DNA of 64,000 nt from positions 505,508 through 569,507 of the forward strand of contig JBNZDD010013553.1 of NCBI GenBank assembly GCA_050575255.1, written 5' to 3'. Source of the DNA: Harriotta raleighana. Its lineage: Eukaryota. Position numbers and translations under genes: made by a program. A model generated the notes under the pieces. That model did not search any database. It saw only the letters and a list, made by a program, of their open reading frames with translations, and was not told where the DNA came from. Each line of letters starts with the position of its first letter. The first letter of the stretch is position 1. Positions 14,323 to 42,400 of the stretch are shown here, in pieces.

Positions 14323-15350
14323 AAGCAGCATAGAGTGATTCACTAATAATAATCCGTGCATTTGATATAGCTTTGCAAACATATCAAGACAATGGATATC
14401 CTTGCACGATACATATTTGGCCACTAGTGGCAGCTGCTGCTGATGAACAGCGAGAGAGAAAAAAAATTAAGAGTACAATACTGTTCACAGATTTATGTAT
14501 GTACTCACATGTTGCTGTTGTTTCCATATCTCCTATTCCCCCTCTCACCCCTGCCCCCCCCACCCACCCCATGACAGCCCCCGATGACGCTCTACCCCAG
14601 GACCCGCCCACTCGCTGACCGCACACACGTGACCCCCCCATCATCACCGCACGGCCTAGTGTGCCCCGCCCCCTGCGCTCGCGCGCACACCCGCGCTCCT
14701 CCCCCCTCTCCCACTCCGCGCGAAAAGCTCAACCGTCGCCTTTTATTCCCCTCGCACTCGGAGCGCACTCTCCCTCCCAAACCGCCTCCCTCACCAGCTT
14801 CTCCTGTAAGAGAAGGCAGGGTCACCCCCTAAACCCTACACCCACTCACCTCGTCACGCGCCTTAATAACGTGATAATTCTTAATAAGAATTATAAGATG
14901 ATGTCGCTGCTACTGGCCGCCGCGTCGTGCCGCCTTCCACCTTTCTCTTCCCCGTCGTCTACCCTTTGCGTACGTGGGTTTCCTCTCTCTCTCTCTCTCT
15001 GCCATCGTCTCGCAAAGACGACGAGACGGTTAAAGACGGCCGGGTTCGGTAGCGCGCGCAGGCGGCCGTTGCCGCTCACGCGCCCGCACCGCACCGCACG
15101 CCCCGCGCCCGCACCGCCGCACGGCCCCGCCCCCGCCCCCGCCCGCCCCGCCCGCCCAGCCACAGACTGGCGCGCACGGGCCCGTCACGTGACTGCCGCT
15201 GGCCGCTGACCCGTCTCGAGCGTCAGTTGGGAGTCGCACAATTATGAAAAAGGCAGCTTCCGCTGGAGCGGCGGCACTCTGCAGCATCCAACTCGCGCCG
15301 CCAGCCGCCCGCCGCGCACTGCCGCCAACAACCCCACCAACACCACGTCG

Positions 15351-15395
15351 ATGGCTAGAAGCCACGCGGATCTTCGCCCTCAACCTCGCCCGTGA
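15351..15395 (+). other. TRPM7 uORF2 (MARSHADLRPQPRP*)
   Basis: ATG at 15351, TGA at 15393-15395, ending 5 nt before the main ATG at 15401. Confidence 0.85.
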
Positions 15396-15400
15396 AGAGA

Positions 15401-15403
15401 ATG
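15401..15403 (+). CDS. TRPM7: TRPM7 exon 1 coding part (start codon only)
   Basis: gagaATG|gtaaga within the CpG island; phase 0 to exon 2. Confidence 0.9.
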
Positions 15404-18400
15404 GTAAGAGAGAGGGGGCGGCGGGGGGGGAGGAGGAGGGGGTGGGGAGAGCGGATGGGGTGTGAGGTGTGGGGAGGGTGCGGGAAGGTTTCGTCAACAT
15501 CACATTTATAGAGAGAGCGCCTTTCACGTCGGGAAAGACGTCCCATTCCCAAGGCGCTGGCTGGCGTGGCTGGCTGAGGAGGAGAAGAAAACAACACTGA
15601 ATGTTCAGTCTCTTGGCCTTTTATCTTATTTGAGGAGGAGGAGAGGGTGAGGGAGTGGGGGGAGGAGGGGGCGAAGAGGTTGTCTGTAGTCCGCGGAAAC
15701 GTGGTGGTGGTGGTGCTGCTGCTGCTGACGCTGTTTTGAGGCGAGTCGAGCCCCCTCCCCTCATTCCGGGCTGGCAGCGTGTTGGAAACACGTTGCTTTG
15801 ATGTGAGAGGGAAGAGGGAGTTGGGGGAGTGCTAAAGGGCGAGAAAGGACGGGGTTTAGTCGTGACATACAGGTCAGGGGCTGGGAGGGAGGCTGCACAG
15901 GTTCGCTCGGGCCGTCTCTCGCACCGCGTGGGGGTGGCGGGGTATATATATATATATATATATATAGGTGGGAGTGAGGGAGGGAGGACTGCACCGACTT
16001 GCTGTAAAAGAGTGTGGAAAATAATGCTCGACGCAGCCTAGACTAGCCTGACTGGAACTGCTTACCAGAATGTTTCCGCTCATCGCGGTGTTTGATGTCA
16101 TTGGGAATGATCACTGCACTCGGCGGGCAGGCAGGCAGGCGGAGTGTGCAATGTCACCTGCCGATCACCACAGATCTGAATGTCACTGATCAGCGGCCCT
16201 GATCGCTGCCTCATCTCGGCAAGTTTGATATCATTAACTAGTGCTGATGTTTGCTCACGTGAAATAGTCGGAGCTTTATTGCAGTGCTCTTAACACAACC
16301 GGGAATAGGCATCGCAAACTAAACTGTCTTTGATGCCGCGATTTACTCGCGCTCGGAGCTCATTATGACAGTTGTTTAATTTTGTGATTTCGACTAAATC
16401 TTAGGTATGCGCTTGCTGGAGAGTCATCGCAGTATTTAATACTACAAAGTAACGTTATTCAAAAGTGTTAGCATTACTTTGAATACAATTACTTTGAATA
16501 CGAACAAACAACGTCAGATGCAACTTACAATGTTTAATTATATTTAGTGACCAGTCGATAATCTTTGGGAAGAGTAAGGAGATGAACTTTATCTGGTGGC
16601 CTTCAGTATCACCGAGGAATGCCTCTAGAGGGATCTGACTAATGTCCCTTTGGGTAATAATGCTCACTGCAAAGTTTAGTCACTGTAACATCCATAAAGT
16701 GATTTTGAATTTAATATTATACAGTGTACATGTAATATTTATCTGAAAAGAGACAATTATTAGTCTAACTGACATCACTGAGAGAAATACTGATTAAACT
16801 GTTCACTCTCCTTTTAAAGTGGTTTGACATGGAAAGGAATGATGCATTAGAAGTCTTGTGCTGAGTAGTTGGTGGTAACCTTCTACAAGTGATGATATTG
16901 ACAAACATGCTGCATCATTAAGGTTAAAGGATTCATTGGAAGTATTTTATGTAGCACCCTTTAATATCATTTGGTAATGATTAGAGTAGCATAATCTAAC
17001 TTTTATAGTGATGGTAAATTGTGGGAATATCTCAAATTAAATGGCAACACTGTTTTATAGAGGGTTGGAAGCCTAACGTGCATGAGGGAAACTGAAAAGA
17101 CAGAAAATTATGTAGTTCTGAAAGAATAAAAAGTTAAATAAATAGTTGAAAAGAAACTATAAAAGAATCTCTAATTACAACTCATGGGTTAGCCAGGTTC
17201 AGTCGTAGCACTCTTATCTCTTGAATTAAAAGTTTGTGAGTTCAAGCCCTACGTCATGACTTTAATCATATAGTCTCAGTTGGCAATTCACTGCAGCACT
17301 GGGGAAATTTGCATTGTTTGAGGGGCTGTCAGTTGAGACGTTAAATTGAATTCCCGGCTTCAGGGGGATGATCAAGATGAAATGGAACTGTTCAAAACAA
17401 GAGGGAAGGTTCTTCTAGTTTTCTGACCAAGGATTCCCCCAAATAAAATTGGTCACTCACTCCATGACTGTTTGTGGAATACTGTGCGCAAACTGGCTGC
17501 ACCGTTTCACCCCAAAAAAAAGTCAATCCATTTTACAGTATATACTGTGAAGAGCTTTGCATGTCTCAATGTTGTGATAAGGCATTATATGAAATACAAG
17601 GATACTGACGACTTGTCATTATGTTATTACAATTCAAATCACTCTGTATAGGTACTGTAGTTTCTAAGCGGCTTTGAATGATGGGTCAGCCAGATCAATA
17701 ACACTGCCATGTTACATATGAATGGATGTTACTTTTCTTAGTAGACCGGGTGACCGGGTCGCAGACCGGATTCACCTCCAGCTACAAGGAATTATTGTAC
17801 AAATTAATACAAATTCGGAAACTTTGGGGTTCAGAAAAATATGGTTTCTCCTTTTATTGCTTTGTCAGGGGATAGTTACTTTTTAATTGCAATTAGTTTG
17901 ATTAACTCACCCAACAAATTGTTGATGACAGAATTTACAAACTAAAAATGCTTTTGTCTTAAAGTTGTGGTTGTTTTGTTCTGAGTTCAACTTTATGTAC
18001 AGTCTATTTTAAAAGGAGAAGCTACTGTATTACTTTAAAGAGAGACTATACCAAAAGGTTCATAGATTCTTCCAGCCAGTATTAAAATAGTTTGGTTAGG
18101 TAAGCGTGTAAACTTGCTGATGATAGTTTTTTTTATCCTTCTTTAAAATTATTCCTACTTTTTTTCTTTTTTAAAATTATTGTTTATAGACTATCTGTGG
18201 AGTGGAGTTGACAGTTTTGTTATTTTGATGTGTAATTGTAGAGCAGTTTGGCGTGATTATAATCCATTAAATATGATTATGATTGTTTCATCCTCATGAG
18301 TCATGTCTTTGGGTGCAGTGTTACGTACTTGCTTTTATTTAAAGAGGAACAGTAGAAGAACTTATATAGCAGTCTTAGTTGCTCTAGTGCTTTTGGCATG

Positions 18401-21400
18401 ACTGTTCAAAGTGCTGTTAAGAGATCCATCGCTTTTGTTTTAAACTTTGGACTAGCTCATATTGCTTGCTCTTAGTGGGTAGATATCCTCAACAAATGAC
18501 TCTAGACCTGTTTAAATTACATGAGGTTCTTTTACAAAAAACAATTGTGCATGAATCGGCTTCTGTGCAGAGTAGGATTTTACCCTGAGGAATAATCGAT
18601 TTGAAAACCCTGAACTGGAATGATTTTAGCTTGAAGTTTGGTTACATTAATGAGATTGCCATGATTGTAAGTAGATGCTACTTTTTTTTCAACATAACTT
18701 GTTCAGTTTAATTAAAACTATTTTCGAATGTTCAAAACTTGTATCATAATTTTTCCGTAACTGTATATTCACAAAGTCTACCTGATTTAACTAGTCAGAA
18801 AGTAGCTGTATCTGTTTCTTCTGGCATTCACTTCAGTGTTTTTAAATTAGAATTTCAGTCAGAAGTTATATGCTAGATAGAATAATAATATTGGATTTTT
18901 AAACTGTAAAAAATTATTACAGTAAAAATATATTTAGTATAGATTAACATTTAACAACAAATTTTATGTACTTGTAAGTATAATTGTTATTTGTATGTTT
19001 CAATAGTAATTTTAAAACTACAACTATAAGTATACTTTTATTTTCCAGTTTACATGATGTATTCTTTATTTTCTTTCCCTCTTTGCAGTTCAAGTTTTCT
19101 TTTCTGACTGAGCAGGAGGAGGTATGGTCTGTTCAATCCTAATGGGAGTAATTACCATAGAATATTCTGATGTATCGAAATTGGTGCTTGGTCCCTGTTT
19201 TCTTTCTTCCTGGAGTAGTGAATTTTGTTATAAGCAGTTGAGAATGGGCAGCTCTACCATACAACTTTTGTGGCTGCTCAATCTAATTCTGTATAAGAGG
19301 ATTCCACTATATTAAAATAACTTTGTCGTGAAGTATTTTGGCATCAGTTGTTTAACTATGCGTAATCCACAATCAAATGACTGATTGTTTATGCCCTATT
19401 TTGCTTGACGGCCATGGGTCTATTTAGACGATTAGGTGAACAGTGTGTTTATGTATGTGTGTCTCTCTCTCCCTCTCCTATGTCTCTCTCTCTCCTCTCT
19501 CGTGTGCTTTCATTTCAAGTCCTAGTTTGTTTAGAACCTTCTTGATGTTAAGGGTATAGTGTGTAGAAACAGCTCAAGGTCACTTTGCTGTTGTGTCATT
19601 ATGCAACAAGAGATGGGCATGTTTAGAACAAAGGTTTAAGAGCAGAATACGTCAGTAAAGCAAAGTTTTAAAAGGATGTGGAGTACTTAATACAATAACT
19701 TGCACTTGTATAGCACCCACCCCATGCAGGGCAGCATCTCAAAGCGCTTTAACAGTGTCGGAGTCGGAGGTGGGGAAGGGATGAAGGAGGGGTAAGCTTG
19801 GTTGAAGAGGAAGGCTTTCAGGCAGGACTTGAAAAAGGTGGAGAGAGAGTGTTCCAGAGTTTTAGAGCATTTAGGCTGAAAATATGACCTCCAATTGTGG
19901 GGGCAGAGAGTAAGTGGGATAAGCAGGAGGCTGGTGCCAGTTGAACAGAGGCACTGGGTGGTGGATTGGGGAGTGAGGAAGTAGGGGAGTGCCACAGTGA
20001 AGGGATTTGAAGTTGATCCACTTGGTGTTGGGGAGCCAGTGGAGCCTGACCAGAACTGGTGAGATGTGGGTACGGAGTTTGGTCCGGGTAAGTATGCAGG
20101 CGGTAGAGTTCTGAATGAGCTGGATCTTTTAAATAGTGGAGCTGGAGAGACTGGTGAGGATTGCGTTTGAATAATTCAGGTAACACATAGTTTGCAATGT
20201 AAGCACTATACTTGGATGACACTTTTCTAAATTGTGAAATGATATTGAGAAGATTACTAACTAAGCATTTCATAGGTTTTGAAGTGATGGCCATTTCCTT
20301 GAGATCTGTGTGTGTGGTAGAAATGTGAATCAAAAGAACAGCCTGGTGTGTGTTCTGGAAGCTCCTGGCAACAATTTTTTGTTGTATCTGATTAGAATTG
20401 ATGCACAGCAGTGGAGCTATTTTATCTGTGCTTATCCCAAATATGCTTTTGTATTGTTGTGCAAGATTGATGTTGATCTTTTCTGGGAGAATCACTTCTG
20501 AGACTGAATCACTCAGTATAGGCAAGCAATTTTTTGCTGCAGCAGCTTTACATTCAAAGCTAAACTTAGAGTCCAGATGCTGTCTTTTATTGCACCTCTG
20601 AGGAGAGCATAGCATCAAAGATGGAACAATTGAAGCATTCGGTGAATTGTAATTTTTTAAAAAGGAATCTGGTTCTGTAACTTGGTTTGAACCAAGTTGC
20701 AAAAATTGCAAATCTTCTTTCAAAAGATTGTAGATTTGTGAATTTTATGTGTAGAGAAATTCCTGATTAATTTTTAAAAATCTATAGTATTAAAATCATT
20801 ATATTATGGCACAGTCAGCCAGTTTGAGCATGTTTCATAACAAATTACTGTCTTAAACAATGTCCAATATTGATGTCTTGAACATTGTAGGAAAATTTGT
20901 GTAGATTGATTGACTGGATGTTACACAACACAGGTGTAATAAAAGTCTGATGATTTAATCAGTTGCTTTGATGTTAAATTTTTTTGGGGGGGAAATCAGC
21001 TGGATGTCTTGACACATGTAGAAACCTATCACTGTTCTTAAGATTTTCGCAACTAAACTGTGTTTCAAGCATCCCACCTTATTCATTGAAATTCCAGAGA
21101 TATTTGTTGGAATGGATGAATCATTTTAAGATATGTGTACTAAGTTCAAACTGTGCATGTGTTGGGAGTCAGAGAAAGAGAAGTCTTTCTTTAGGCTTAT
21201 AGCAGGAGGGGATTGGTCCACTTCAATGATGGGAAATGTTAGGAATCTTGTAGCTTTTAATTGTATTATTCTCCATGTTTTATAGCTTTCAGCTTTATTC
21301 TCCCTAATTGGCAACCTGACAAAGTGTTAAGACCTGGAAAAGCTATAGGTGAAACTCCTATTAATCTTCACCCTTGTTCATCCATTTTGGTTGTAGATCT

Positions 21401-24400
21401 TGCCTCTGATTGCTGCAGCAAATTAAGACCCAGCTGAGTCTTCGGGGTGGGGGAGGGAGGGAGTTTGAATATAAATGTTGCTGCCACTGGGCCAGCTGGC
21501 AGTCAGCATGTTCTCAGTAGTAACTAGTTGAAATAGCAATATGCACATTGTAGATACAAGGAGCAGGATTAGATTCTGACATAGAACTGCAGTTAATAAT
21601 TTTGCTGAAGCTAACACTTTTGCAAAAATCGATAGTTCTGTCTACAACTGCTCCTGAAATAAATGTCCTTTCATCTTATCTAATGTAAGAAAGTGATCAA
21701 AATTATTTTAATGATTATAAATTGAATTGGAGCAATCAGCCAATGCTCATTCATTGCAAAACAGATTTCAATTCTTTTGGCTGTATTCTGTGTGAAGGGT
21801 GGGAGAAATGTATAAGCAGCAATTTTATGACTAGCTCCCATGTTTGTGATGTGTGGCCCTGGCCAGATAGCCAAGGTCTGAATTCAAATTGAGATTTTTG
21901 CTATTTTAAATGAGCTTAATCAATAAATGGGCTGAACAATAATCCATGTGTTTGATATATTGCTTTCATGTTGCTTCAAGGACTCGTAAGGTAGAGTAAC
22001 TGCATTTTGTAAGCATAATGCCGGCATGCTGAGGTACACTAACCAGGAAAGTAGCAAGTTCAATCTTTAATTTGCCGAATCACCTGATCTTTGTCAAAAG
22101 TAACTTTTAATACCCATTGTAGAGAGGAAATTGGGTCTGCATTTTTACTGTGTTGATGGTTATTGACTGACCTCTGCTGGAAAGTGGCAGTGTGTGAACA
22201 TTGAATGAATCTATCTCTTCTGTGATGACCTTGATGTGTGATAGCCTGCTGATACCGGAATGGTATTTGGTTGAGCTATTGGTGGGCTGCTGGTAATGTG
22301 GGCTATACAACAACATCAATGTTGATTTATATAGCGCCCTCCATGCTGGATGGCGTCTCAGAGCGCTTAACAACAATGGATCCCGGGACACAGGCAGGGG
22401 TCGAAAGGTGACCAAAGGTCTTAGGTGGGACCTGAAACTGGGAAAAGAGGGGATGAGGCAAAGGGAGTGAGGAAGGGAGTTCCAGAGCCTCGGGGCTTAG
22501 TGGCTGAAAGCACGGCCGCCGTGGATGGAGCGGAGGATTCGGGGTACACGGACGAGGCCAGATCCAATCAAGCGGTCACCACGGGTGCTGGTTTGAGGAG
22601 AGAGGAGGTCGGAGAAGTAGTGGGTGCAGAGATGTGGAGGGATTTGAAGACAAGGGTGAGGATCTTGCAATCAATCCTCTCTGGGGTAGGGAGCCAGTGA
22701 AGTCTGGCAAATGGGGTAATGGGGGAGCGAAGTTTGGTGTGGGTGAGAATGCGGGAAGCAGAGTTTTGAATTAGTTGGGATTTTATGGATTGTGGTAGAG
22801 GGAGACCGGCGAGGATGGCATTGCAATAGTCCAGCTGAGAGGTATCAAAGGCATGGACCAGGGTTTCAGTGGCTTTTGGAGCAAGATATTGCCGGAGACG
22901 GGCAATCCGACGGAGGTGGAAGAAAGTGGTGCTGGTGAGGGACCGGATGTGGTGGAGGAAGGACAGTTGGAGGTCGAACCTGATGCCTAGGTTGCGCATG
23001 GGTTTGGAGAGTTTTAGGGCCAGGTGGAGGAGGTGAGAGTCGTGAGATTGGAGACCTTGACGAGAGCCAAAGAGTATGGTTTCTGTCTTGTAAATATTCA
23101 GCTGTAGGAAGTTCGCGCTCNCAGCATGTTCTCAGTAGTAACTAGTTGAAATAGCAATATGCACATTGTAGATACAAGGAGCAGGATTAGATTCTGACAT
23201 AGAACTGCAGTTAATAATTTTGCTGAAGCTAACACTTTTGCAAAAATCGATAGTTCTGTCTACAACTGCTCCTGAAATAAATGTCCTTTCATCTTATCTA
23301 ATGTAAGAAAGTGATCAAAATTATTTTAATGATTATAAATTGAATTGGAGCAATCAGCCAATGCTCATTCATTGCAAAACAGATTTCAATTCTTTTGGCT
23401 GTATTCTGTGTGAAGGGTGGGAGAAATGTATAAGCAGCAATTTTATGACTAGCTCCCATGTTTGTGATGTGTGGCCCTGGCCAGATAGCCAAGGTCTGAA
23501 TTCAAATTGAGATTTTTGCTATTTTAAATGAGCTTAATCAATAAATGGGCTGAACAATAATCCATGTGTTTGATATATTGCTTTCATGTTGCTTCAAGGA
23601 CTCGTAAGGTAGAGTAACTGCATTTTGTAAGCATAATGCCGGCATGCTGAGGTACACTAACCAGGAAAGTAGCAAGTTCAATCTTTAATTTGCCGAATCA
23701 CCTGATCTTTGTCAAAAGTAACTTTTAATACCCATTGTAGAGAGGAAATTGGGTCTGCATTTTTACTGTGTTGATGGTTATTGACTGACCTCTGCTGGAA
23801 AGTGGCAGTGTGTGAACATTGAATGAATCTATCTCTTCTGTGATGACCTTGATGTGTGATAGCCTGCTGATACCGGAATGGTATTTGGTTGAGCTATTGG
23901 TGGGCTGCTGGTAATGTGGGCTATACAACAACATCAATGTTGATTTATATAGCGCCCTCCATGCTGGATGGCGTCTCAGAGCGCTTAACAACAATGGATC
24001 CCGGGACACAGGCAGGGGTCGAAAGGTGACCAAAGGTCTTAGGTGGGACCTGAAACTGGGAAAAGAGGGGATGAGGCAAAGGGAGTGAGGAAGGGAGTTC
24101 CAGAGCCTCGGGGCTTAGTGGCTGAAAGCACGGCCGCCGTGGATGGAGCGGAGGATTCGGGGTACACGGACGAGGCCAGATCCAATCAAGCGGTCACCAC
24201 GGGTGCTGGTTTGAGGAGAGAGGAGGTCGGAGAAGTAGTGGGTGCAGAGATGTGGAGGGATTTGAAGACAAGGGTGAGGATCTTGCAATCAATCCTCTCT
24301 GGGGTAGGGAGCCAGTGAAGTCTGGCAAATGGGGTAATGGGGGAGCGAAGTTTGGTGTGGGTGAGAATGCGGGAAGCAGAGTTTTGAATTAGTTGGGATT

Positions 24401-27400
24401 TTATGGATTGTGGTAGAGGGAGACCGGCGAGGATGGCATTGCAATAGTCCAGCTGAGAGGTATCAAAGGCATGGACCAGGGTTTCAGTGGCTTTTGGAGC
24501 AAGATATTGCCGGAGACGGGCAATCCGACGGAGGTGGAAGAAAGTGGTGCTGGTGAGGGACCGGATGTGGTGGAGGAAGGACAGTTGGAGGTCGAACCTG
24601 ATGCCTAGGTTGCGCATGGGTTTGGAGAGTTTTAGGGCCAGGTGGAGGAGGTGAGAGTCGTGAGATTGGAGACCTTGACGAGAGCCAAAGAGTATGGTTT
24701 CTGTCTTGTAAATATTCAGCTGTAGGAAGTTCGCGCTCATCCAGCTCCTGATGTCTGACAGGCAGGCTGACAGAACATCAGGGGATTGGGGGGTCGAAAA
24801 GTGAGGTGGAGAAATAGAGTTGGGTGTCATCTGCATACATGTGAAAGAGGATCCTATATGTCTGTGGATGACGTCCCCAAGAGGGAGCATATAGATGAGG
24901 AAGAGGAGTGGGCTAAGGATGGATCCTTGGGGTGCCCTGCAGGTAACCCGGGTGAGAGCGGGAGGAAAAGCCGTTTGTTGAGATGTACTGCTGGCAGTTT
25001 GTGAGGTAGGACTCGAACCAGGCAAGTGCGGTGGATGACAGGCGGTGGAGGAGGATGGCGTGGTCGACTGTCGATCGCAGATAACGGGTCCAGGCAGATA
25101 AGGAGGCAGAGGGAACCCTGGTCACAGATAGAGAAGACATTATTTGTGACTTTCACAAGCACAGTCTCTATACTGTGGGCAGGGCGGAAACGGGACTGGA
25201 GGGTTCGAAGGGAGTGGGAAGAGAGGTGAGCGCAGAATTGGTTGGCAACAACTCGTTCGAGTGCTTTGGCAAGGAAAGGCAGGTTTGAAATAGAGCGGTA
25301 ATGGCTGGGGTTTGAGGAATCTAGGGAAGGTTTTTTGAGGAGGTGGATGTTAGCAGCAATTTTGAGGGGTGCAGGGACCGTGTGAGTTGCATCTTCAGAA
25401 TATTGTAGAGAGAAAAAGGAAGATTGGTGGAGAAAAATTGTCAAGTCACAGAAAGAATACATTGACAATCCCTTTGCCATTTCTGTTGGTGGTTTCCATG
25501 GGATTGTGTTCTTTTCCTATTAAACTATAACCAGTGCTGAGAAATGTTAAGATCATTTTGCATTGTATGTCAGTTTCGATTTCCCTGAGAATTCAATGCA
25601 AATGATAGCCTTGTGTTCAAGGTTTGTTTTAGCTAATTTTTGTGGGACGAAATATAGAGACAACTGAAAATTGCTGATATCAACGATGAAGAATTTTTAA
25701 AAATGAGTTACTTGCAGTGATTTATTTTTAAAGATTCCAGTTAGGCAGGTGGCATGATTGATCTCAGTCCAAATAAGAGGCTAGTTGTTAATTTGGCAGA
25801 AGCTGGGATGCAAAGTGCGTCCATTTTAAATATTAACAATGGACATTGAACTTCTTTTTAGGCCCAGTAAAATTGTTCCACTACCCACTCTCCCACTGCA
25901 ATATATTCTTCATAAGGGTTTCTATTATAATGGTTTGTTTTAATTCTTTCATAACTAGTGTTTGAGTATAAACTGAAGGGAGCATCAATCGTAACAGATG
26001 TAAAAATCTGTCACGATTGATGTTAACATGGTGCCTTACGTAGGAGTCAAAGTAATCCCAGGTTTAACATTGAAGGAAATCTCTTCACTGTCATACCTTG
26101 TGGAAGGAAAAGTGGACTTTGTTTTATAATCAGGCCAAAAGGTGTTGTCAACCTTACTATCAGATCCAGAAATTTTTAACAATATAGTATTCTAAAGGTA
26201 GTACTGTAACTGTTGCCTATCCTTGGGGCATTTTATGTAAATGTTTTGTTTTTGTTTGTTTGTTATGCTGGTGTTGTTGGATGTATTTTCGGAATCTTGT
26301 TTCCTCTAAATCAGTCAGTCTGCTGGATGTGAACTTTACGATAATTTATTTTTTATGTCTTATGGAGGGGATGTATAGGAGGGGATGACTAGCGGCTTTG
26401 GACTTTTCATTGAATGCTAACACATTCCAGTTGGTTGATCCTGGAAGAGGATCACATCTTCTCAATCAGGGGCAACGATCCCCTCAAATTCAAGTACGGA
26501 ATGGGGGGGGGGGGGGGGGGGGGGGGAGACGACGACGAGGAAACGGGAAAGAGGGAGGGGTAAAGACANCAGTAATGAACTATTATCATGAAAACTCTTT
26601 AAAATGATTGGTTTTGAAAACCCAATGCAGATGGATCCTGATATAGTCAAACTCCTCTTGTTATGAAATTGAAATATAGGTATTTCAAAAGGCATCTTCT
26701 GGTTTTGATAGAGTAATATGTAAGTAAAATTTGGTAAGCTTTAGTTTCTGCAGGATTTGGTCTTTGTCTTATTATAATATATTTGTATACTATTTCCCTT
26801 TAGATAAGTCAGTAATGCCTTACCTGGCTGCTTCCTGTTTTGGAAAGCTTAGGACTGATATGTTTTGTGTTGAGGGCTGAAGATCTGTTGCAAGGAACAA
26901 AATTTGCGCCTAGTTTGATCTAAGTATCATTCATTAATGCTAACCTATTGGTTTACTTATTTGCTTGGCTAGTTTGTAAAGATAGGACTTTGAACTTATT
27001 AATGAAAAAGGTAGATGGCATCGATACTTTTAACTTCTTAATTGTACCTTGTCCCAGAAACACATATTTGTATGAGTAGGTTACTTTCTAATAGGATAAA
27101 TGCAGCTATTATCTGTGTCTCTGTATTGTTTTGCTGATCACAAACTTGCCAAATCATTATTATCCTACAGTAAATAAGTTTATTCCTTTCCCTGCACAGC
27201 TCTGCACTTTATTCTAGTACAGTATCCAGAATTTCACCTTCCTTACATTGTTTCATTTTTACAGCAAAACAGATAGTAGAGATATTTAGTACAATAAAAG
27301 CTTCGTTATCCGGCACCCTCGGGACCTGACCAATCAAATATGCCAGATATTCGAGCGGCTAGTTGCCGAAAATCCTAAACAAAAAATTTACTTTAAAATG

Positions 27401-30400: not shown

Positions 30401-33400
30401 GGCACAAAAGGCCATTCGGCCCATTGAGTCTGTGCCAGCTCTTTAAAAAGAGCAATTTAATCCCACTCCCCAGCTCTCTCCCCATAACCTCGCAAACCCT
30501 TCCTCCCCAAATAAATGTCTACCTCTCTATACTCACTCTATACTTTGCTGGAGTTCCAGACTAGATTATAGGCTCCCAGATTTTAATGCAGTGTTTGAAC
30601 CCACAACCTTCTGACTTAGAAGTGTGAGTTCTACCAACTAAACCAAGCTGGATGGTTATGTTTAATCTTTCTTCTATGTGGTTGTGAGAGAAACGTAATA
30701 AGTTTTCTTCTGGGCTAGGAAGAAAGAGATAAAATAAATGATGCTTTGTGCCGTACACCCTATGTTGCAGGAACTTTTTCATGGGAATACTTTAGGTCTG
30801 CATAGAGAAGTACAATGTGAGTGAAGGGTGGATTCTGAAAACAGTTCTAGGAAATGATAAAATCATAGGGGGAGGAGACCCATTTTTTCACCTTCAACTC
30901 TAGTTAACCCCGTATGCACCACTCAGCTTTCAACATTTACATTGCTTCTGAAGGGTCTACAATTGAAGAAATGTTTAGAACTATGTAATATAACTATCAA
31001 ATGTTCACCCAAGTTTTTTTTAAAATAACAAGTTTTGAAATTATTTCATGATCAAAGGTTTAAATCCTTCAGCTTTCCCTGCACAACCTTGCACATATTG
31101 GCCTTCAAGATGTTCTGCACTGTTAGGATCATCTGGTTCTGCAAGTGTTCGTCTTAGCAAAGCTTACTTAAAAACCCTACTCCTTTAGAAATCTAAAGAT
31201 CTATGTAAATGGACTGAATTCGCAGTTGTGCAGAACAATACGAATTGTTTGCATTGCAGAAATATTGATGTTTTCTGCTAGAGTACTAGAAAAGCGCAAT
31301 GATGGGTGTGTGCCCTTTTGTTGTAGGTTCATTTGATCTGTGAAAACCACCCAATACTCCAGTTTATGCAACTGTGTGCCTGGAGAGAGCATTTTCAGAA
31401 ATACTCTAGGGTGAAGGACAGGTGATAGGAGCAATTTGAGATGAGGAATTAGGAGAATTGCACAAGAAGTGTGTTGGCACAACATAAAAGCAGGTTGGCT
31501 TAAGTGTAATATTTTTTCCAATCTGAATACTCAGGTCAACTTGGTGCTGGTTACTTATATGCTATATAAGCTATATGACCACTGAGTTGCTCTACTTGTT
31601 AGATGACATGATCAGCAGTCAGACTGCTGTATTTGAGCACAGTTTTCGAGATGATGAGAAAAATGTCATCATCATTTTGAGATTGTACTTTTTAATTTGA
31701 CATTATTACAAAAGCTGGCTTTTGGCTAAGCTGGAAAACTCCTGTGGTTTATCAAATGAACTTGACATTTCCACCTTGCAGCCTTTTGTATACTGGTTGT
31801 TTTTGAAAGGATTATAAAGTTTGCAAGGCAGATCTGGTATGCAAGTGCTATGAGCGAGATAAATGTGGGGGCCCACTCTATGGGTGTTAATAGCAGAATA
31901 TTTGAAGAACACAAGCATTTACTAACAGAATGCCAAAGCCAAAATTCGTACCATGTTTTACTGCCGTTGTACATCAGTACCGAAATAATGTGGATTCAAT
32001 TTTGTAAACTGAGTATGTCATTGATTCACTGAAAGAAACCACTATGTTGCAGTTCTAACATTGTTGCATGCTGATACAGTAGTTTGATCAAGTTAAATGA
32101 TAGTTGGTTTAAGGTTTTCATTGTAGAGCTGAAGTGTTTTAAGGGTTAGCTTTGATAAGGGGAAAACATGTTTATATACAGTAATATGTACAGTATTCAC
32201 TGAGTAGACCTTCCTGTTTCATAAAGGACAGTGATGAATGTTGTTTGTTCAGTCTATGAGTTGTGTAAATACCACTTAATAGCAGCATACGTTTTGATCA
32301 GCTGCTTTAGAAATTTATCTGAGCGAAACAGACCAGGAGTGTCCTTAAAAATTATTATTAATAATCCTTGGTATAACGTCTGTAATATTGGAACATCTCA
32401 AGTACTTCACAGGAAATTCCTGTCAACTGCACTGACTGTATTTGTAGGGAAACTAGCAATCATTTTGCACACAGCATGGTCCCACAAACAACGATGAAGT
32501 GAGCGACTAATTCACCTGAAGGATTGTTGGCTAGGATACTGTACCATCCACTGGTACCCAGCCCACTGATGATGGTGCTTTTGCTGCCAGTAAATCCAGA
32601 ACAACTCAATTATACTTTCTCTGTTTCCTTTCTTGAGGTAAATAAAGTATCTATATGAGTATGTATTTGCTGGTGCAAGTTCTCATTGCTCATATTGTTG
32701 GTCTTCTGCGGAACCCAATTTCTCCATCCCCTGTACCCTTGGCATGTAGTTGTCACCCAGGGGGAGCATATAGAGGGTGAAGAGCAGGGGGCCAAGGACA
32801 GAGCCCTGGGGAACGCCGCATGTGACTCTCCCGGGCCTGGAGGAAAAGCTGTAGGAAGAGACAAAGTGAAGGTGGTGGGAGAGATATGACTGGAACCAGT
32901 TAAAGACGGAGCCTTGAAGGTTGAGGAGGGAGAAGAGGCGGTGGAGGAGGATTGTGTGGTCGACAGTGTCGAAGATAGGTCTTGAGTTTAGCTTAGAGAT
33001 CTTGATGTGTTGATTTTATTAATTGTGCAGACAACAAAATCTTTCCAGCCTGGTATTTTACAGGATCAATATGGTCACATTTTATGAGCTAATAAGATCC
33101 ATGAGCTGTGGAGCTTGATGGTGTGATAATAAGCTGTAGGGCTCAAATACATGTGGTTTCAGGATTGCATGACGCGTTTGCTTAAAATTCGATGGCACAG
33201 ATCACAGGCAAGTCCCATGGCACATCACATGCTGAAAGCTTAGTAGGTTAAATTAACATTGGTGGAAGAGGTTGGCTTGGAGAGTAGTGTATCTAACTAG
33301 GAAAGTTTAATTTTATTTCTATTTTAAAGGGGGCCTCTGCAGAAGTAATTGGATTAGGAGTTTCAGGACTCTTGTGCCTGAGTCAGATGGTTATGGGATT

Positions 33401-36400
33401 CAAACTCTATGTCAAATCACATTGTCTTAAGATGACACTCCAATGTAGTGCTGAAAGTAGGTTGCATTGTCAGAATTTGTTGTTTCCTCGCAAATTGTTT
33501 CACTTTCAGACATTTATCCTATCCTTTCCTTACCACCCCACCTCCATAAGACGTTCTTTGCTGTTCATGAGAGGAAATGGTGGAATTGCACTGCACTATT
33601 GCGTCAAGGGACTGTTTTCTGACCAGTTCTGTGTATGCATGTGTGTCTTTCTGTTTCTCTCCCATGCATTTCCCTGTAACAGGGAAATTGATCTGTGAAC
33701 AATCTCATTTAAGTTCAAGGTGTAACAATTTAGGAGAGGAACAGAAAAAAATCTCAGCATTACTATGTGCACCCATCCTTTGACCAAGGTATGGTTAGAA
33801 TGTTGAGGGGGAAGGAAAGCAACCACCTAGAAGCAGCATGCGTAATGTAAAGGAACAATACAAGATCTTAGCCAGTTCCATTTTCTTTTGATGTTTGATT
33901 TTTAAATTGTAAATTGTCATGGTTCACATTATGGCTGGAGGTGTAATTTTGATACCAAATTGTATATTGCACAATAGTTTTTTTATTTAGGCTTCAAACG
34001 GTAGAAAATGTATCTTAGTAAACAATTCTTGTCTGATGGAGACTCATTTATGGGCAAGAATTGACTAGTTTAACCTTAATGTATTCCTTTGGTAAAGGGT
34101 GTGGTTGAGAATCAGTGAGACTGATTGTTAATTTTTAATATTTATTTTAACAGAACAAGTTGTATTTACAGTGAGGTTCTGACATTTGGTAGGTGTATTT
34201 CCTTTTATTTCTTAGTGAAATGGCTTGAATTTGTGATTTCATAAAGCCAGAAAAATGGAATAGGTGTAGAATATGTTTTTGTTCGATATTATGTAGTTAT
34301 ATATGCTGTTTGTATAAAATATATATAGGCCATGGTTGTGATTTTTTTTCCCATAAATATTTATTGTAGTTTATTTCCTTTAACAGTACCAGAAAACCTG
34401 GATAGAAAATACTTTTACAAAGAGGGAATGTGTATATATAATTCCAAGTTCAAAAGATCCCCACAGGTAAAGATTTTTATTGTTCAATTCTGACCTTGTA
34501 TGTGCTTTTATACAAATGTAATTTTGATGTTACTTTTGTATTTTGGACAGTGGAGAAGATTGAATAGATTGAAAGAACCAAAATAAGTTGTTACACTGTT
34601 TCATTCTTTACTACCTGTTACTGTATGATATATCCATATATCCATACTTCAAACTTGATTCTTTGATGAGCATACGTCTGTGGTTCATTCTTCAACAACT
34701 ACGTTATATAAGAGGGTTGTTGTGCTGCCATGTATAGGTATTTGTAAGAACCAGAACAAAAGGGATAAGGACAAATGTGGATAACTACTGCTTCATGAAA
34801 GGGTTCCTTTGTTAATGGTACCACAATTGTCATCTATGGAATTTTGTGGGTGTATCAATCAATCAATCAAAATTACATTTATGTAGCGCCTTTCACATCG
34901 GGAGGACGTCCCAAGGCACTGTACAGTCAAATAGGGATCAGAGAAGGGTGGGGGGTTCGGGGAAGGAAAGTAGGAAAAATTGACTGTATATTTGTGGGTA
35001 TAAGTTTAGATAAGTCTGGGAATTTGTTTTGATAATCTTTAAGATCAAGGAAACATTTTACAAATCTTACCTGGAAGGCTTGCTATCACGTTTAGAGTTG
35101 GGGACAGTCCGCAAAGGGCATATTGCATGTGATCTGAGGAGAGAAAGGGCATTATCATGCGATAAATAAGATTATCTCATTGCATGCTTTAAATCGCAGT
35201 ACGTTAAAATGATGTTTTTTGTGTTATTTTGAAATAATATTAAATTTGTCTTCTTCATTGACCATCTCCAAAAATGTTTGATCTTGGCAGATTAGCTTTA
35301 ACCTTGTATAGTGATCCACTGACTTTGCTCTGCACAAATATAGTGATTCCATCAATTGAGTTTCTTTTTCTTGTTTCCAGATGCCTTCCAGGATGTCAGA
35401 TATGCCAACAGTTGGTCAGGTAAGTTGCTTTTAATGTAATCCAGTAAGGTGACCAAAACAATCTTTTGATGACTAACTACTACCCTTCATCAAATTGACT
35501 TGCAGTAAACCTTGCTGCCAGTAACCGCTTAAAATTGTTTTCAAGATGCTGATTTGGTGGATTATAACTAGTCTAAAATAAATTATAGAAATTTCATTCT
35601 GAACTATTCTGTAAGAAACATCTTATCCTGATGGCTAAGAAAGTGCCAGATTTGTTTATATGGCCAGTACAAATGGAGATTTCTTGAAGACCAATATCTG
35701 CTAATTTACAATAACAATAATCCCTTATCATACATACAGACACTTTCATGGGAATTACAATAAAGTGTATAAACTGTGTACCTAGATAAATGGCAGATAA
35801 TTTGTAACATGTCCCACCAACAGCCTAGGAAGGAATGCCTAATATTGTTTGAGGGATTGTTAACCATGACAACAGGAAAAACTATCTTCTCTTTTGCAAA
35901 TAATAATCCCTCTATAAAAAACACAATAATAAAATTGATCATTTCAATCCACAACTATTTATGTGACACTGCTGTGCACAATTAGCTGCCGCATTTCACC
36001 CACAAATATACAGTCAATTCACTTTACAGTATATTCTGTGAAGAGCTTTGAGACGTCTAGAAAATGTGAAAAGCACTATATCAAATGGAAGACTTATTAT
36101 TATCTTTAATGTCCACCCGTACAAACAGATGGGCATTCAGTTTAACTTCTTATCCAAAGTATGGCACTTTACAATGCTGTGCACTCTCAGTGTCAGCCTA
36201 GATTGTGAGTTCAAAGTCCCAACGTGGGGTTTGACACCACAATCTTTTGAATCAAGCGAGAGTCAACTAAGCAAGGCTGATACTGTAATTTCTATTGATT
36301 ACTATTAGTCACCTCTATTTTTTCGTGCCACAAATTCACAATGACATTTTGATCATGACTTCAGGCAACCTTTTCTTCGGGATTAGAAGGAAAGGAAAGC

Positions 36401-39400
36401 TGGGAAGTTTCAGGATAATAAAATAATAATAGCAACCTATTTTCATTGGTAATCCAGCTCTGAAAATTGCTGATAATTTAGTATTTGGCATTTGAGTTCC
36501 TTGAAGATATGGCAACCATCCAAGTGGCATGAGACCAATAACGTTCAGTTCACGTGAACAAAGTATCAAGCAAGGCTTTAATTAAACATTGGTAGAGCCT
36601 AATTCTATAATTATATGTCCAAATTTCTCTGTTGAATAATTATTTGATAGCAAATAAGTGAGAATCATCTTATTGAGCAATGTTAGGACTGTATTTATTC
36701 ATGATCGTTAAATTTGATATAGCTTCTCTGAGGTCTCGAAGCACCAAAAGATTTATTGAAAAGGATAATGCCTGTATTTTGCCAATTTTGTCTGTAGCAA
36801 TTTGCACACAGCATTAAACAGACATGAATTGCGTGACTAGATTTTTTGGGGGTGAGGGGGTTCGGGGGATTATTGGCCAGGGCACAGGGGGAATCCATCC
36901 TTCTGAGATTTTAACATCCATCTATCTCAGATGCATTCAGCAGGTCATTTTAATTGAAGAATATTCAAAGTTGGATGCATTTTTAAGTTAAATCTACATT
37001 TTTCTTTTCCCCTTCTTTCTCTCCCACCCCCCCGCCCCCACCCTCTTTCAAAACCTATATTTTAAAATTCCAATTGGTAGATACCTTCTGAAAATGCATC
37101 GTGTGTATCAGAATTCTCCTTTCCCTTCCACTTTCTCCCCTCCATCTCACTGCCACCCACAGGCCTAAATGGTAAAGTTGATTCCCACCGGGGAGCACTT
37201 GTTATCAAGAATTTGTAATCATGTGGATGGTCTGTTACCAATTTAGAAGCAATCTTTTTTGTTTTTTTTCAAAACTTTATCCCTGCCAACATTTTGCTAG
37301 ATTCCTATCCTTGAAATTGTCCAGATGCTCTGAGCTGGCAGTTTCAGAGGGAGGCCAATCTGAGGGCAGGTCTACCCACACACCTCTTAGTGGTCAGACA
37401 ACTAGCGACAGCGGCCTGGGAACAAATTACTATACTTCTTTACCCATTTTCAAAAAAAAAGGGCTGTTGCGAATCCACTGGTCCATTGGCTTCAAAAGAG
37501 AAAGGTAGGCCAATATTTTGGGCTCCTTTCTCGATCCTATCAGATCAAGCTGCAGTAAATTTTCAGCTTCTTATGTTTTTGTTTCCTCGCAAAATGAGAT
37601 TATAGGGAAGGGTAGGTATGCGAGGGAGACTTAGGATGGGAAGGTCTTATCAAATTAAGGGGGAGATGAACAAGATGTACAAATTCACAGAAATGTCAGG
37701 AAACACGTGTGTTTTAAGCAGTAACTAGCCCTTTGCTGCTCAGCAATTTTTGGTGAGTTTTCTAGCTGATTGTGAGACTGATTTTTATTGTTTCACGTTC
37801 CACTGACAAAAAGTTTCATTAGTGGTCTCAAAATCTTGCTCTGTAATATAAGCAGGTGCATGTGCAGAAAGCAGGCTGTGTACTTCACCTGCAATGATAA
37901 TATCCAACCACATGTTTCTCAGTGTGATGTAGTATTTGATGAGAGATAGTGGAGGGAGAAAGCAATAGGAGTAGCCTCTAACATGGGATTAGTGCAGGGA
38001 GTCATCACAATCCCACCTATACACAGAACATAATATAAGAAAGGCACCCAAAAGTGCCCAAATGTATCTGAGACAACCAAAAAGAGTAAATCATCCTATC
38101 ATGGCTATCTTCCAAAACCTTTTGACCCAGATCGTGGGATGCAAAAATATGCTACAAATAGTAGGAGGTCATAAAATGGGTCTCTGTTGGAAGTCGAGGA
38201 GCCCATCCAGCCACAGTGACTTACTTCATGGTCCAATAGTAATGTGCCAACAGACCATCCACAGAATTATGTGAGAAGTACTGATTTGTTCTTGGCTAAG
38301 TGCAACATTGTAAGTGCTCTTGAGTAGAATAGGTCTGTGGAAATTTATTTGCTGATCTTTCATAGGCCATTGCTAGTTGATATTTTTGAGGCAGCCTGCC
38401 AGAGAGCGTTCCATTACTTCTTTTAATCTTTTCCGAGATTTCAATATTGAATTTTCATATTCCACGCTGTGGGAAAGGGATGCAAGGCTCACTGCATATC
38501 TACAAAATTGTCCATTGCACCTGGAGAGATCACAGGATTGTTCCAAAAGGGTAATCTGGCAGCAAAGACTATTGCTAAATATGGGAATATTGGCAGCATT
38601 CTTATTAGATGTGACTTAAATGTCTTTAATTAGGTAGTAGCTTTAATCATGTGGAACTTGGTTCCCTGTCATACACTGCACCATTCGGCATCTGTAAAAT
38701 GATGTTGTGCATCAGAAAACAATTATCAATCTGAATTCACCTCAGTGCAATCCACCTCAATATCTGCTTTCTGCAGTGTTAGCTTGTTTTTATTTCTGTA
38801 GTAATAAGTTATTGATTTGGATGCCTGAAATGTTTATTATTGTTTGTCTCATTCTCAATACAAATATTTTGGTAGAAATCCACAAACTTGACAAACTTCC
38901 TCCAAGGCAACTCTAGTATGTGATTTTTGGACACTTGTTTCCCCCTCAAGCCTGGTTGTTCGCAAAATTGGAAGTTTTAGCACACACTACCCACGAGTAG
39001 ATGCTCTACTTTCAACATAAAATTTGAAGTAGAGAAGAAAATTCTTTATGCTGTAATATGAATATCCTTCTAATAATTTTACTTGAACTATGTGACTTCC
39101 AGTGGATTTTGATGTTCATACACCAGGCTTGGACAGTTGTCAATTGCATTTCTGGGCTTATATGATCCAGAGAAACACATCTGGCAATGGCCCATGTCTG
39201 CTTATCAACCTGAGGCGGAAATACTTTACAATGCCTTCCAGATCCAAAGAAGGCATGATGTGTAGCCCTCCCTTATTTGAGAAGAATAGATGTTTATATT
39301 CCTAACTTCTCCAATGGAATCCAAATAAAGCCGTATGTTAGCATTTGCTGAATCGATTTCCAGTCGCTTAAGTGTGCCTGTTCCTCTGTACAGGTGCTGC

Positions 39401-42400
39401 TGTGGGCGGTTAGTGAGGCAGCATCTTGGCTTCACTGCAAGCCTGGCAGTCAAGTACTCCGATGTGAAATTGGGTGAGACTGAAAACTTGGAGCAAGAAG
39501 AATGGTCGGTGGAGAAACATACCAGCGAGAGTCCAACAGATGCTTATGGAGTCATTAATTTTCAGGGCGGGTCCCATTCATACAGGGCCAAGGTTTGTTT
39601 GATTCAAATTCTGTCTCTGGGGTGGTTCTACTAATCTCCAGTGCTGAGTTTACTGGTCTTCTTCCAACTTTAGGAATCATTCATAAGATTCCTAATTTGT
39701 CTGCAGTTTAAAATACTGAACAAGGGTTGGTTGGAAAAACTAAATTGAAATGCATAAATTGTGTGTTGCTGAATGCTCTTGTTAAAAATAACCTATTGAT
39801 CCACTAGAAAATTGTGTGTATGTCCTACAAGCCTGAAATGAGAATAACAGGCTGATGCTCCACTTTGCTGGAGTGCTTTTTTCCCTTCTGTAAAACAATT
39901 GACTTTTGCAATATAATTGCCGGAGTACTTTTGCAGTGATTTATAAAGAGCAGTACAATTAACCCTTTTGAAGAGTGCTGCAAATAGTTAAATCTGATGG
40001 GTTTGATGAGAGAGAAATATACATTGTAATCTTCCAAAAGCAGAAAACTTTCAAGTGTCATTGTGTCAAATTAAAACTAGATGCACTATTTTTGTGCGAA
40101 CACATTTGTGGGCCAAATGTGTTCACACATCTACGACCAGGTGAATTTCTAATGATGGAAGTTTTTTTTGATTAAATGTCCCTAAACGAAGATCGCCTCT
40201 TCATATCTTTCATCAGCCTTCACAATCATCTGCTCGGTAGCTTTTTACAAGTATCACTCCATAACTAACTATTTGTATGTGGCTGTTCTCTTCCCCTCCT
40301 TACTGGAAAAGTATTTAGTCTTTCTGAGGGCCTTCTAAAAGCCTGGATGTGTGAAGAGGTGGGATAGTCCTATAGCAGTCAGGTTGATGGAGTGTGATGA
40401 CTGAAATCTGCAGTTTTGTCAGAAACTGCAAGAACTAATTGTCTTTTCTATTCAAACTAGTATGTTAGATTATCCTATGATACTAAACCTGAAGCTGCTT
40501 TAAGACTTATGCTGAAAGAGTGGCAGATAGAACTGCCTAAACTCGTCATCTCTGTCCATGGAGGAATGCAAAACTTTGAACTCCATCCACGCATCAAGCA
40601 GGTTGTTGGCAAAGGGTTAATCAAAGCAGCTGTAACCACAGGGGCCTGGATTTTAACTGGAGGAGTGAATGCAGGTAATGTGAACCAATTTCTGTCAACC
40701 ATTGGATTTGTGCTGTATATCTAGCTGGTCGGTGAAGACTGTTCATATGAACCTGTCACCACTTTGTTCACTGTTTGACTACAAGGATGGCCATGTTGAG
40801 CATTTTTATTTGTTTGTATGTTGACCAGTTTGTACTGCTTAGTTTTTTTTTAACCAACTTATTTTTAAAAAAAATTCTGAACCTACTTGAACTCTTTGCC
40901 CTCTTCTTCCTCTGTCACGCCACCCCTCTTTCCCCCCCCCCCACCCACCCCCATTGAATTAAACACTCCTGATTTATGCACCCACAACTTTGTTATTCCT
41001 AAAGCTAGGTGATCAAGGAAATTGTTTATTACCCATATTGCTTGTCGATTTGAATTGAGCACAACAAAGTTTACTGGCAACCAAAGCTAAACAAAGACAC
41101 TACTGTTGTAGCATTGGAAACTAGTGAATGTAGTTCTGACTGGAAGTCAAACCATTGTTCAATCAGTTTTTAATAATGAGATCGCCAATGTATTTTACAT
41201 GAATTTACTTGAACTCTTCAGCCAAAATGTTTCTGTGAAAGTATAATAATAATAATCCTCAAGTTTCATATATGCTTTTGTGTATATTGTAGCATGTTAC
41301 AACAGAGAAACAGCCAGTCTTTGGCCCATCAAGTCTGCACTAATGTTTTTTGCCACATAAATCACTTGATCTCATCCCACTGACCCTTTTCAAGCATCTT
41401 AAATCAGTTTCTAGTTTAAAGCATGCTCTTGTCTTGAATATTTAATAGCACATGTTCTGCATTTCAATCATTCTCTGTGCAAAAACATTTGTTTGCTAAC
41501 TTTATTTTTCTAAATTAAATTACGCCATCAAATGATTTTGATCTATGATTCACTCATTTTTGTCGGACAAGATTCATCTGTCCTCACTATTATTGGTTGA
41601 TGTGGGGATGATGTTATTGCTCTATTTACTAGGTGTGGTGAAACATGTTGGTGATGCAATGAAAGAACATATTTCACGTTCATCTCGGAAGATTTGCACA
41701 ATTGGAATCGCACCCTGGGGTGTGATTGAAAATAGGAATGACCTTATTGGAAGAGATGTAAGCATGTTATTAACCTTCAATTTAGCTGTTGTTGAATTTT
41801 TTTTAGTGGGTGGGAAAGCTTGAAAATGAAAATAACCAAATGAATACCTTTTGTTTTGCAGTTTGTTGCCCCATACCAGACTTTGTTGAATCCCTTGAGT
41901 AAGTTGAACGTCTTAAATAATTTGCATTCCCATTTCATCTTGGTGGATGATGGAACAGTCGGGAAGTACGGCGCCGAAGTCAAGTTCCGGAGAGAACTGG
42001 AAAAACACATCAATCTTCAGAAGATTCATGCAAGTGAGTTCTGTGGTTATTGTGCAAGTTGTGGAATGACTGATGCATATAAGAGAATCTATATATAAAC
42101 CAGAAACATCATACACAGTTGGTGTAGCGTTCTTTGGCAAAAAAAAAAAAGATTTAGAGATGGCTAGTGATTATATGGTAAAATATCTGTTGAGTAATTT
42201 TTTCAGGGTACAAGGTTAATCAAGTGATGGAATGACAAGTTGACTTGTTTAATTGAACTCTTGTGTAACTAATTTTGGCAATGCTTGGAGTATAGTTTTG
42301 AGCATCCTATTTTCTAAATAGCATTAATTCTCTTGAGTCCAGAGAAGAATTAAATATAATTCTGGAACTTCAAAAAGGTTTCCAAACCAGAAGCTCACAG

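Follow-up and report, generated by a model that had tools for sequence, protein, structure and literature searches.

In mouse TRPM7, an upstream open reading frame (uORF) of 390 nt, uORF1, overlaps the coding sequence of the channel by 206 nt, and a second one, uORF2, of 63 nt, terminates 5 nt upstream of the channel start (PMC4227784). In the same study, mouse uORF1 repressed translation at least 2-fold, the upstream AUG (uAUG) of uORF2, or uAUG2, shifted the response to Mg2+, human and mouse ribosome profiling showed frequent initiation at uAUG1 (text and Fig S5 legend), repression was already present in a mouse reporter with the overlap cut to 23 nt, and the control was attributed to leaky scanning; the uAUGs were conserved across vertebrates, and the uORF peptides were not conserved across classes (PMC4227784). 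Here we describe the corresponding leader in a stretch of 64,000 nt from the cartilaginous fish Harriotta raleighana (contig JBNZDD010013553.1, positions 505,508 to 569,507, forward strand), which as a whole we call the window, and whose gene, judged by its sequence, is the TRPM7 ortholog. We consider it probable that the overlapping uORF1 of this leader works as a regulatory brake, selected for its translation and its open frame, with the encoded peptide being of little weight.

Other described systems help to frame this reading. In PRL-1/2 (PTP4A; Hardy et al. 2019), as in TRPM7, a uORF makes a gene of magnesium homeostasis responsive to Mg2+, although the two sequences are unrelated; the PRL-1/2 uORF reportedly acts via a conserved peptide and stalling. 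POLGARF and altSLC35A4 share with uORF1 an upstream frame that is long, conserved and extends into the main coding sequence, and they have a detected protein or clear synonymous constraint, neither of which was seen for uORF1 of the window.

Three ATGs of the window, at 15244, 15351 and 15401, lie in three separate reading frames, and together with the exons into which uORF1 continues, whose splice pattern was inferred from DNA signals and protein homology, they give the following layout:

15244 to 15403, + strand: exon 1 part of uORF1, 53 codons plus one base; start context A at -3 and A at +4
15351 to 15395, + strand: uORF2, 14 aa; start context T at -3 and G at +4
15396 to 15400, + strand: spacer from the uORF2 stop to the main ATG, 5 nt, as in mouse
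15401 to 15403, + strand: TRPM7 start codon, the final codon of exon 1, with the GT donor next; arrangement as in mouse
34387 to 34466, + strand: exon 2, 80 nt, AG/GT ends, tblastn match to TRPM7, open in the TRPM7 and uORF1 frames
35381 to 35419, + strand: exon 3, 39 nt, AG/GT ends, tblastn match to TRPM7, both frames open
39394 to 39477, + strand: dual-read part of exon 4; the uORF1 stop TGA at 39475-39477 spans TRPM7 codons 68/69
39478 to 39592, + strand: remainder of exon 4, TRPM7 frame only

Joined by coordinate, uORF1 has 120 aa (363 nt including the stop), terminates with the TGA at 39475-39477 and overlaps TRPM7 over 67 sense codons, or 206 nt counting the stop; none of the exon-skipping joins puts it in fusion with the channel frame. 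An earlier note on this DNA, made from the letters alone, had described the three ATGs in three frames, the 14-aa uORF2, the 5-nt gap and the main ATG ending exon 1, all of which are base-exact, and coordinate joining reproduced its uORF1 of 120 aa, open to 39475 and overlapping ~67 TRPM7 codons. The leader blocks that it had named as shared with human, around both uAUGs and the uORF2 stop, are present in the mouse leader (PMC4227784 supplement, comparison by eye), and its two-uORF, Mg2+-sensitive TRPM7 leader is indeed published, with experiments on the mouse leader (PMC4227784).

All the sequence features of the published mouse leader are found in the window leader: the leader and ATG are in exon 1, the two uAUGs are out of frame, uAUG1 has A-3/A+4 and uAUG2 has U-3/G+4, the spacer is 5 nt and the overlap 206 nt. 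The GC content is also close to that of the mouse/human leader (66% vs 67.5%) and, as there, no unusual folding is present (z 0.92, without special structure). The two leaders differ in the distance from uAUG1 to the main ATG (157 vs 184 nt in mouse, with the frames retained), in uORF2 (45 vs 63 nt) and in uORF1 (363 vs 390 nt). Since both the architecture and its conservation in vertebrates have already been published (PMC4227784), the window is a further instance of a known leader type. By parsimony, this holocephalan-like fish and the uORF1 proteins read in the same frame from catfish, amphibian-like and bird-like sequences and mammals support the proposal of the earlier note that the two-uORF architecture is at least as old as the jawed-vertebrate ancestor, an age which is not new because PMC4227784 reports conservation across vertebrates.

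One entry in the supplement of PMC10032668 catalogues human uORF2 (c15norep49) as “primatomorpha - young”. A uORF with matching context and stop position nevertheless exists in the window at 15351-15395, and peptide-based dating overlooks this positional conservation of uORF2.

Evidence for selection keeping the uORF1 frame open comes from the junctions between TRPM7 codons, given that a stop in the uORF1 frame arises wherever T is the last base of one TRPM7 codon and AA, AG or GA opens the following one. Before codon 68, none of the 11 such at-risk junctions of the window carries T (site-specific P 0.0185), and a geometric estimate from the downstream stop rate of this frame (76 per 1153 junctions) gives P ~0.010 for 67 clear codons, both figures being post hoc because uORF1 was chosen for being open. 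Stop-free runs of at least 67 codons are absent downstream (0/75). Two further loci were found via the main frame: L005, which is most similar to bird TRPM7, and L006, for which teleost TRPM7 is the nearest. Both have the uORF1 frame open through the covered part of exon 4 and end at the same stop codon as the window; a third locus of that search, L007, was spurious, so that 2/3 loci were used. Downstream, T occupies 14/34 at-risk junctions in the window, 10/23 in L005 and 7/36 in L006, while in the overlap it occupies 0/4 in L005 and 0/3 in L006; the pooled contrast (0/18 vs 31/93, p 0.003) is overstated, as shared ancestry is ignored. In the same genome, three paralogs lie on other contigs, and the uORF1-equivalent frame is closed within exon 2 in all three (4, 1 and 2 stops). 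The TRPM6-like paralog, L002, has its first exon-4 stop in the uORF1 frame after 27 codons, which is probably chance.

The at-risk sites are not frozen. The residue differs among the five lineage representatives at codons 12, 23, 40, 48, 56 and 63, and the at-risk wobble bases switch among A, C and G between lineages, with T never appearing before codon 63. At that codon the following feature stands:

39458 to 39463, + strand: CpG at TRPM7 codons 63-64; its decay would shorten uORF1 by five codons; retained in the window and in L005

Among the bases at comparable downstream junctions, C makes up 5/85 and T 48/85, and the bird-like proteins P0132 and P0148 terminate exactly at this CpG site, the one early stop seen. 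Altogether, the sequences speak with moderate strength for an avoidance of stops as far as about codon 63.

The proteins of other species agree with this picture. We assembled 29 spliced uORF1 proteins from mammals, bird-like and amphibian-like species and catfish, as profile matches and cluster members, of which 26 have 67 overlap codons ending at the codon of the window, two, both bird-like, have 62, and one model runs into intron 3. The profile search, with lengths of 14-275 aa, yielded 50 proteins. Of these, 10 were spliced and had 62 or 67 overlap codons, 36 continued from exon 1 straight into intron 1, 3 were exon-2-only pieces and 1 left the frame after 21 codons. No spliced profile match ends at an at-risk junction before codon 63, and short early-stop forms were within the searched lengths and matchable through exon 1. 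Thus, frequent early stops in other species, which the earlier note had named as the observation that would count against a microprotein, were not seen in L005, L006 or the spliced uORF1 proteins. Among 7 exon-4-only pieces, 4 end at the codon of the window, 2 (P0123 and P0124) show W there, and 1 catfish model is 27 residues longer. P0123 and P0124, which seemed to read through the stop, were not counted as extensions, given that they have W at both places where other species have TGA; at these W positions TRPM7 has E/D69 and D90 in 82/82 N-termini, and the W is probably a TGA mistranslated by the gene caller. Also set aside were P0195 (21 overlap codons, many changes), probably a retrocopy or an odd splice and outside the 29; 3 of the 12 matches in a second protein search, with 7-13 repeated stretches (P0125 was read as an example); and L015 and L016 in the prokaryote/viral collections, which were spurious short matches. 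A cartilaginous-fish uORF1 protein was not among the matches listed (50 and 12) of the two protein searches, and a protein search with the portion of uORF1 encoded by exon 1 scored none of 469 candidates.

Is selection for openness needed at all? The alternative is that nothing beyond the start codons and a short overlap is important, with the long frame being inherited luck plus splice- or RNA-level constraint on the first small exons, and we regard this as unlikely. It draws in part on the points that weigh against our preferred reading, which are these: in addition to the post hoc choice and the shared ancestry already given, the longest downstream clear run reaches 61 codons, and the T/non-T states are correlated between lineages, so that where the window has non-T downstream, T is found at only 3/12 (L005) and 2/23 (L006) junctions. 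L005 and L006 alone are non-significant (~0.24, hand arithmetic), and adding mouse (~10 junctions, bird rate borrowed) gives a joint chance of roughly 0.01-0.06 by hand. The alternative-frame proteins were themselves ascertained through their open frame, and the shared codon-68 stop is partly a mutational default because T is the commonest base before GA. In favour of the alternative there are, furthermore, just 11 at-risk junctions, two of which close an exon, a place where donors commonly read CAG before GT. At the RNA level, the mouse 5' untranslated region (5'UTR) of TRPM7 is classed as hyperconserved in a passage of a preprint (bioRxiv 10.1101/2020.06.29.165878). Finally, ~200 nt of overlap is unexplained by existing data, because the 23-nt overlap was sufficient for repression in the mouse reporter (PMC4227784). 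Luck, however, does not fit well with at-risk wobbles that vary among A, C and G without ever becoming T before codon 63, with a codon 63/64 CpG that both the window and L005 retain although C is seldom found at such junctions, or with paralogs closed in exon 2 in 3/3 cases. Moreover, four-fold sites downstream have an identity of only 25/56, 25/71 and 21/55 between the window, L005 and L006 lineages, and therefore there was time enough to lose the frame.

If the frame is kept open, the peptide could be the reason, and uORF1 may also encode a working microprotein by dual coding, possibly restricted or largely restricted to amniotes and with a small Cys-containing C-terminal part; we hold this to be improbable. 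What speaks for it is that the frame is open in all five lineages seen, that uAUG1 is frequently used in human and mouse ribosome profiling (PMC4227784), and that databases already hold the product in human, mouse, other mammals and catfish. The human product is NP_001401876.1, uncharacterized LOC128092252, UniProt A0A6Q8PGL7 (129 aa), and that of mouse is UniProt A0ABJ3HNX4 (128 aa, uncharacterized); cluster look-ups gave further gene models in cat, beaver, porcupine, dugong, two whales, a bat and catfish. LOC128092252 and A0ABJ3HNX4 resemble the window uORF1 in frame, 67 overlap codons and last codon, and differ in length (129/128 vs 120 aa), with a conditioned overlap identity between human and window of 32/53. 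The uORF1 product is thus already recognised in databases and is not a new protein, yet these entries are annotations and no proof of function, they bear the name “uncharacterized”, and a literature search found no paper with their ids and none that, judged by title or opening of the abstract, deals with the product or its conserved stop, most subscription papers being outside that search.

The residues themselves argue mostly against the microprotein. Among the five lineage representatives, overlap identity is 30-39/67 (55/67 for mammal vs bird-like), and 12/15 of the residues invariant across them fall at most 7 codons from a splice junction. At the DNA level, alternative-frame identity in the overlap vs downstream was 16/36 vs 64/136, 15/25 vs 69/187 and 10/25 vs 53/136 in three pairs, and four-fold site identity showed no overlap excess in 3/3 pairs. 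When conditioned on unchanged TRPM7 codons, the values were 34/54 vs 49/87, 27/47 vs 57/117 and 35/56 vs 45/91 (p 0.27, 0.20 and 0.085), in a test that reconstructed the main-frame codons for other species out of their alternative peptides and took the downstream values from L005/L006, not from the same species. The conditioned overlap excess of 5-13 points was non-significant in 4/4 comparisons (p 0.085-0.35), so there is no significant excess over the downstream frame. Against our preferred reading, all the conditioned overlap-vs-downstream comparisons lean to higher overlap identity, with a small excess in the same direction in three cross-lineage tests, and of six wobble tests, three of them all-wobble, a single all-wobble one reached p 0.019. 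The conditioned identity of human vs bird-like (50/61) also matches that of human vs mouse (55/66), both figures being without downstream calibration, and a residue constraint limited to amniotes may exist. The amniote CxxC motif, however, is missing from the window, amphibian-like and catfish peptides, and the exon-1 part ranges over 51-91 residues. The TRPM6-like paralog has several of the same exon-3 wobble bases, though its frame is closed upstream.

AlphaFold2 gave the uORF1 product a mean predicted local distance difference test score (pLDDT) of 44.9, with no residue at or above 70, which from a shallow alignment of 10 sequences is weak evidence, and Pfam returned no family above the cut-off in 5/5 uORF1 queries. 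The ESM Atlas gave no usable match, which counts neither for nor against; disordered microproteins exist, so lack of a fold does not exclude function. A sequence-constrained microprotein across jawed vertebrates, as the earlier note had suggested, is not supported, because the alternative-frame residues drift about as the downstream frame does, and PMC4227784 concluded likewise. More doubtful still is the stronger version, according to which the TRPM7 mRNA would have been dual-coding since the jawed-vertebrate ancestor, with a protein of 120-158 residues, read from the frame taken by most ribosomes, made probably more often than the channel and serving a separate function, for instance in metal or Mg2+ homeostasis.

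We return, then, to uORF1 as a brake, where selection would keep the frame open while caring little about the peptide. The leaky-scanning logic of the mouse is likely here because no sequence feature of the mouse model (PMC4227784) is missing from the layout. By analogy with mouse, the strong uAUG1 would engage the majority of scanning ribosomes and take them out of frame beyond the channel start. Ribosomes that leak past it would initiate at the weak uAUG2 with higher frequency when Mg2+ is high and arrive at the channel start with higher frequency when Mg2+ is low, so that uORF1 would be the brake and uORF2 a Mg2+-dependent gate. In this arrangement uAUG1 would be confined to the third frame, because of the other two, one would extend the channel N-terminally and one would terminate at the uORF2 stop, and a conserved frame would need no conserved peptide. 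As a best guess, the long overlap may keep termination far from the channel start, barring the return of ribosomes to it; alternatives for the long overlap are decay tuning or a working peptide. The end point of uORF1 is tolerant, with one lineage five codons shorter and one 27 longer, and the text of PMC4227784 makes no remark on the position of the uORF1 stop. Our literature search did not find a reporter test of the native 206-nt overlap, and in that on a nonsense-mediated decay link, TRPM7 was absent from the matches listed.

In the leader, one element stands out upstream of uAUG1:

15184 to 15193, + strand: perfect palindromic E-box GTCACGTGAC, inside the block that matches the mouse cDNA leader at its 5' end

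This E-box, presumably “CLEAR-like”, occurs once in the window against 0.02 expected, and a literature search joining TRPM7, TFEB and “CLEAR element” found no paper. Because the block at about 15176-15199 is common to the mouse cDNA 5' end (by eye, the mouse E-box having one base different), the transcript start probably lies near 15175, upstream of both uAUGs. A 103-aa frame from the ATGs at 14898/14901, ending at 15209 across the CpG island, was set aside as probably upstream of the transcript start, judging by the mouse 5' end. In the runs X1-X3, consulted for RNA evidence, the matches to 14700-15600 were all partial and of low complexity; they leave the leader uncovered and are uninformative on expression.

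The identity of the gene rests on 25 tblastn TRPM7 segments spread along the window and on its exons. Exon 4 in full (39394-39592, 199 nt, AG/GT ends, tblastn match to the TRPM7 protein P0005) has 100% protein identity with Callorhinchus milii TRPM7 and 92-94% with shark and ray TRPM7, being nearer to TRPM7 proteins than to the 3 paralogs (49-68%), and the remaining exons differ by a few percent from Callorhinchus milii TRPM7. Splice-site scoring gave 24 candidate exons between exons 1 and 4, of which two (34387-34466 and 35381-35419) encode the peptides given in the earlier note. Upstream, on the same strand, peptidase A22B exons at ~7028-7198 and 10269-10469 are likely those of SPPL2A, the order of SPPL2A and TRPM7 in human being the same, and the gene models of catfish (P0129) and bichir (P0038) have a peptidase A22B gene fused with TRPM7 sequence.

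Several side observations concern the gene itself. The window has Tyr as TRPM7 residue 2 and Thr as residue 5 (34387-34398), whereas elsewhere residue 2 is Ser in 64/64 N-termini and residue 5 is Ser/Pro. An extra AG six bases inside exon 2 is a possible acceptor whose use would preserve both frames and give a uORF1 of 118 aa. In 82 N-termini, TRPM7 residues are near-invariant to codon 69 and variable at 70-75, right past the uORF1 stop. In intron 1, the stretch 22001-26000 is G-rich, with GC skew up to 0.445, and probably consists of simple repeats.

In summary, the leader type behind the published Mg2+-responsive control, tested on the mouse leader, is now placed by its start contexts, spacer and overlap length in a cartilaginous fish, and what is added here is this cartilaginous-fish instance together with the stop-avoidance evidence and its paralog controls. 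Wobble variants in exons 2-4 that are “synonymous” for TRPM7 could alter TRPM7 output, and, if dual coding were true, lesions in TRPM7 exons 2-4 would affect two products.

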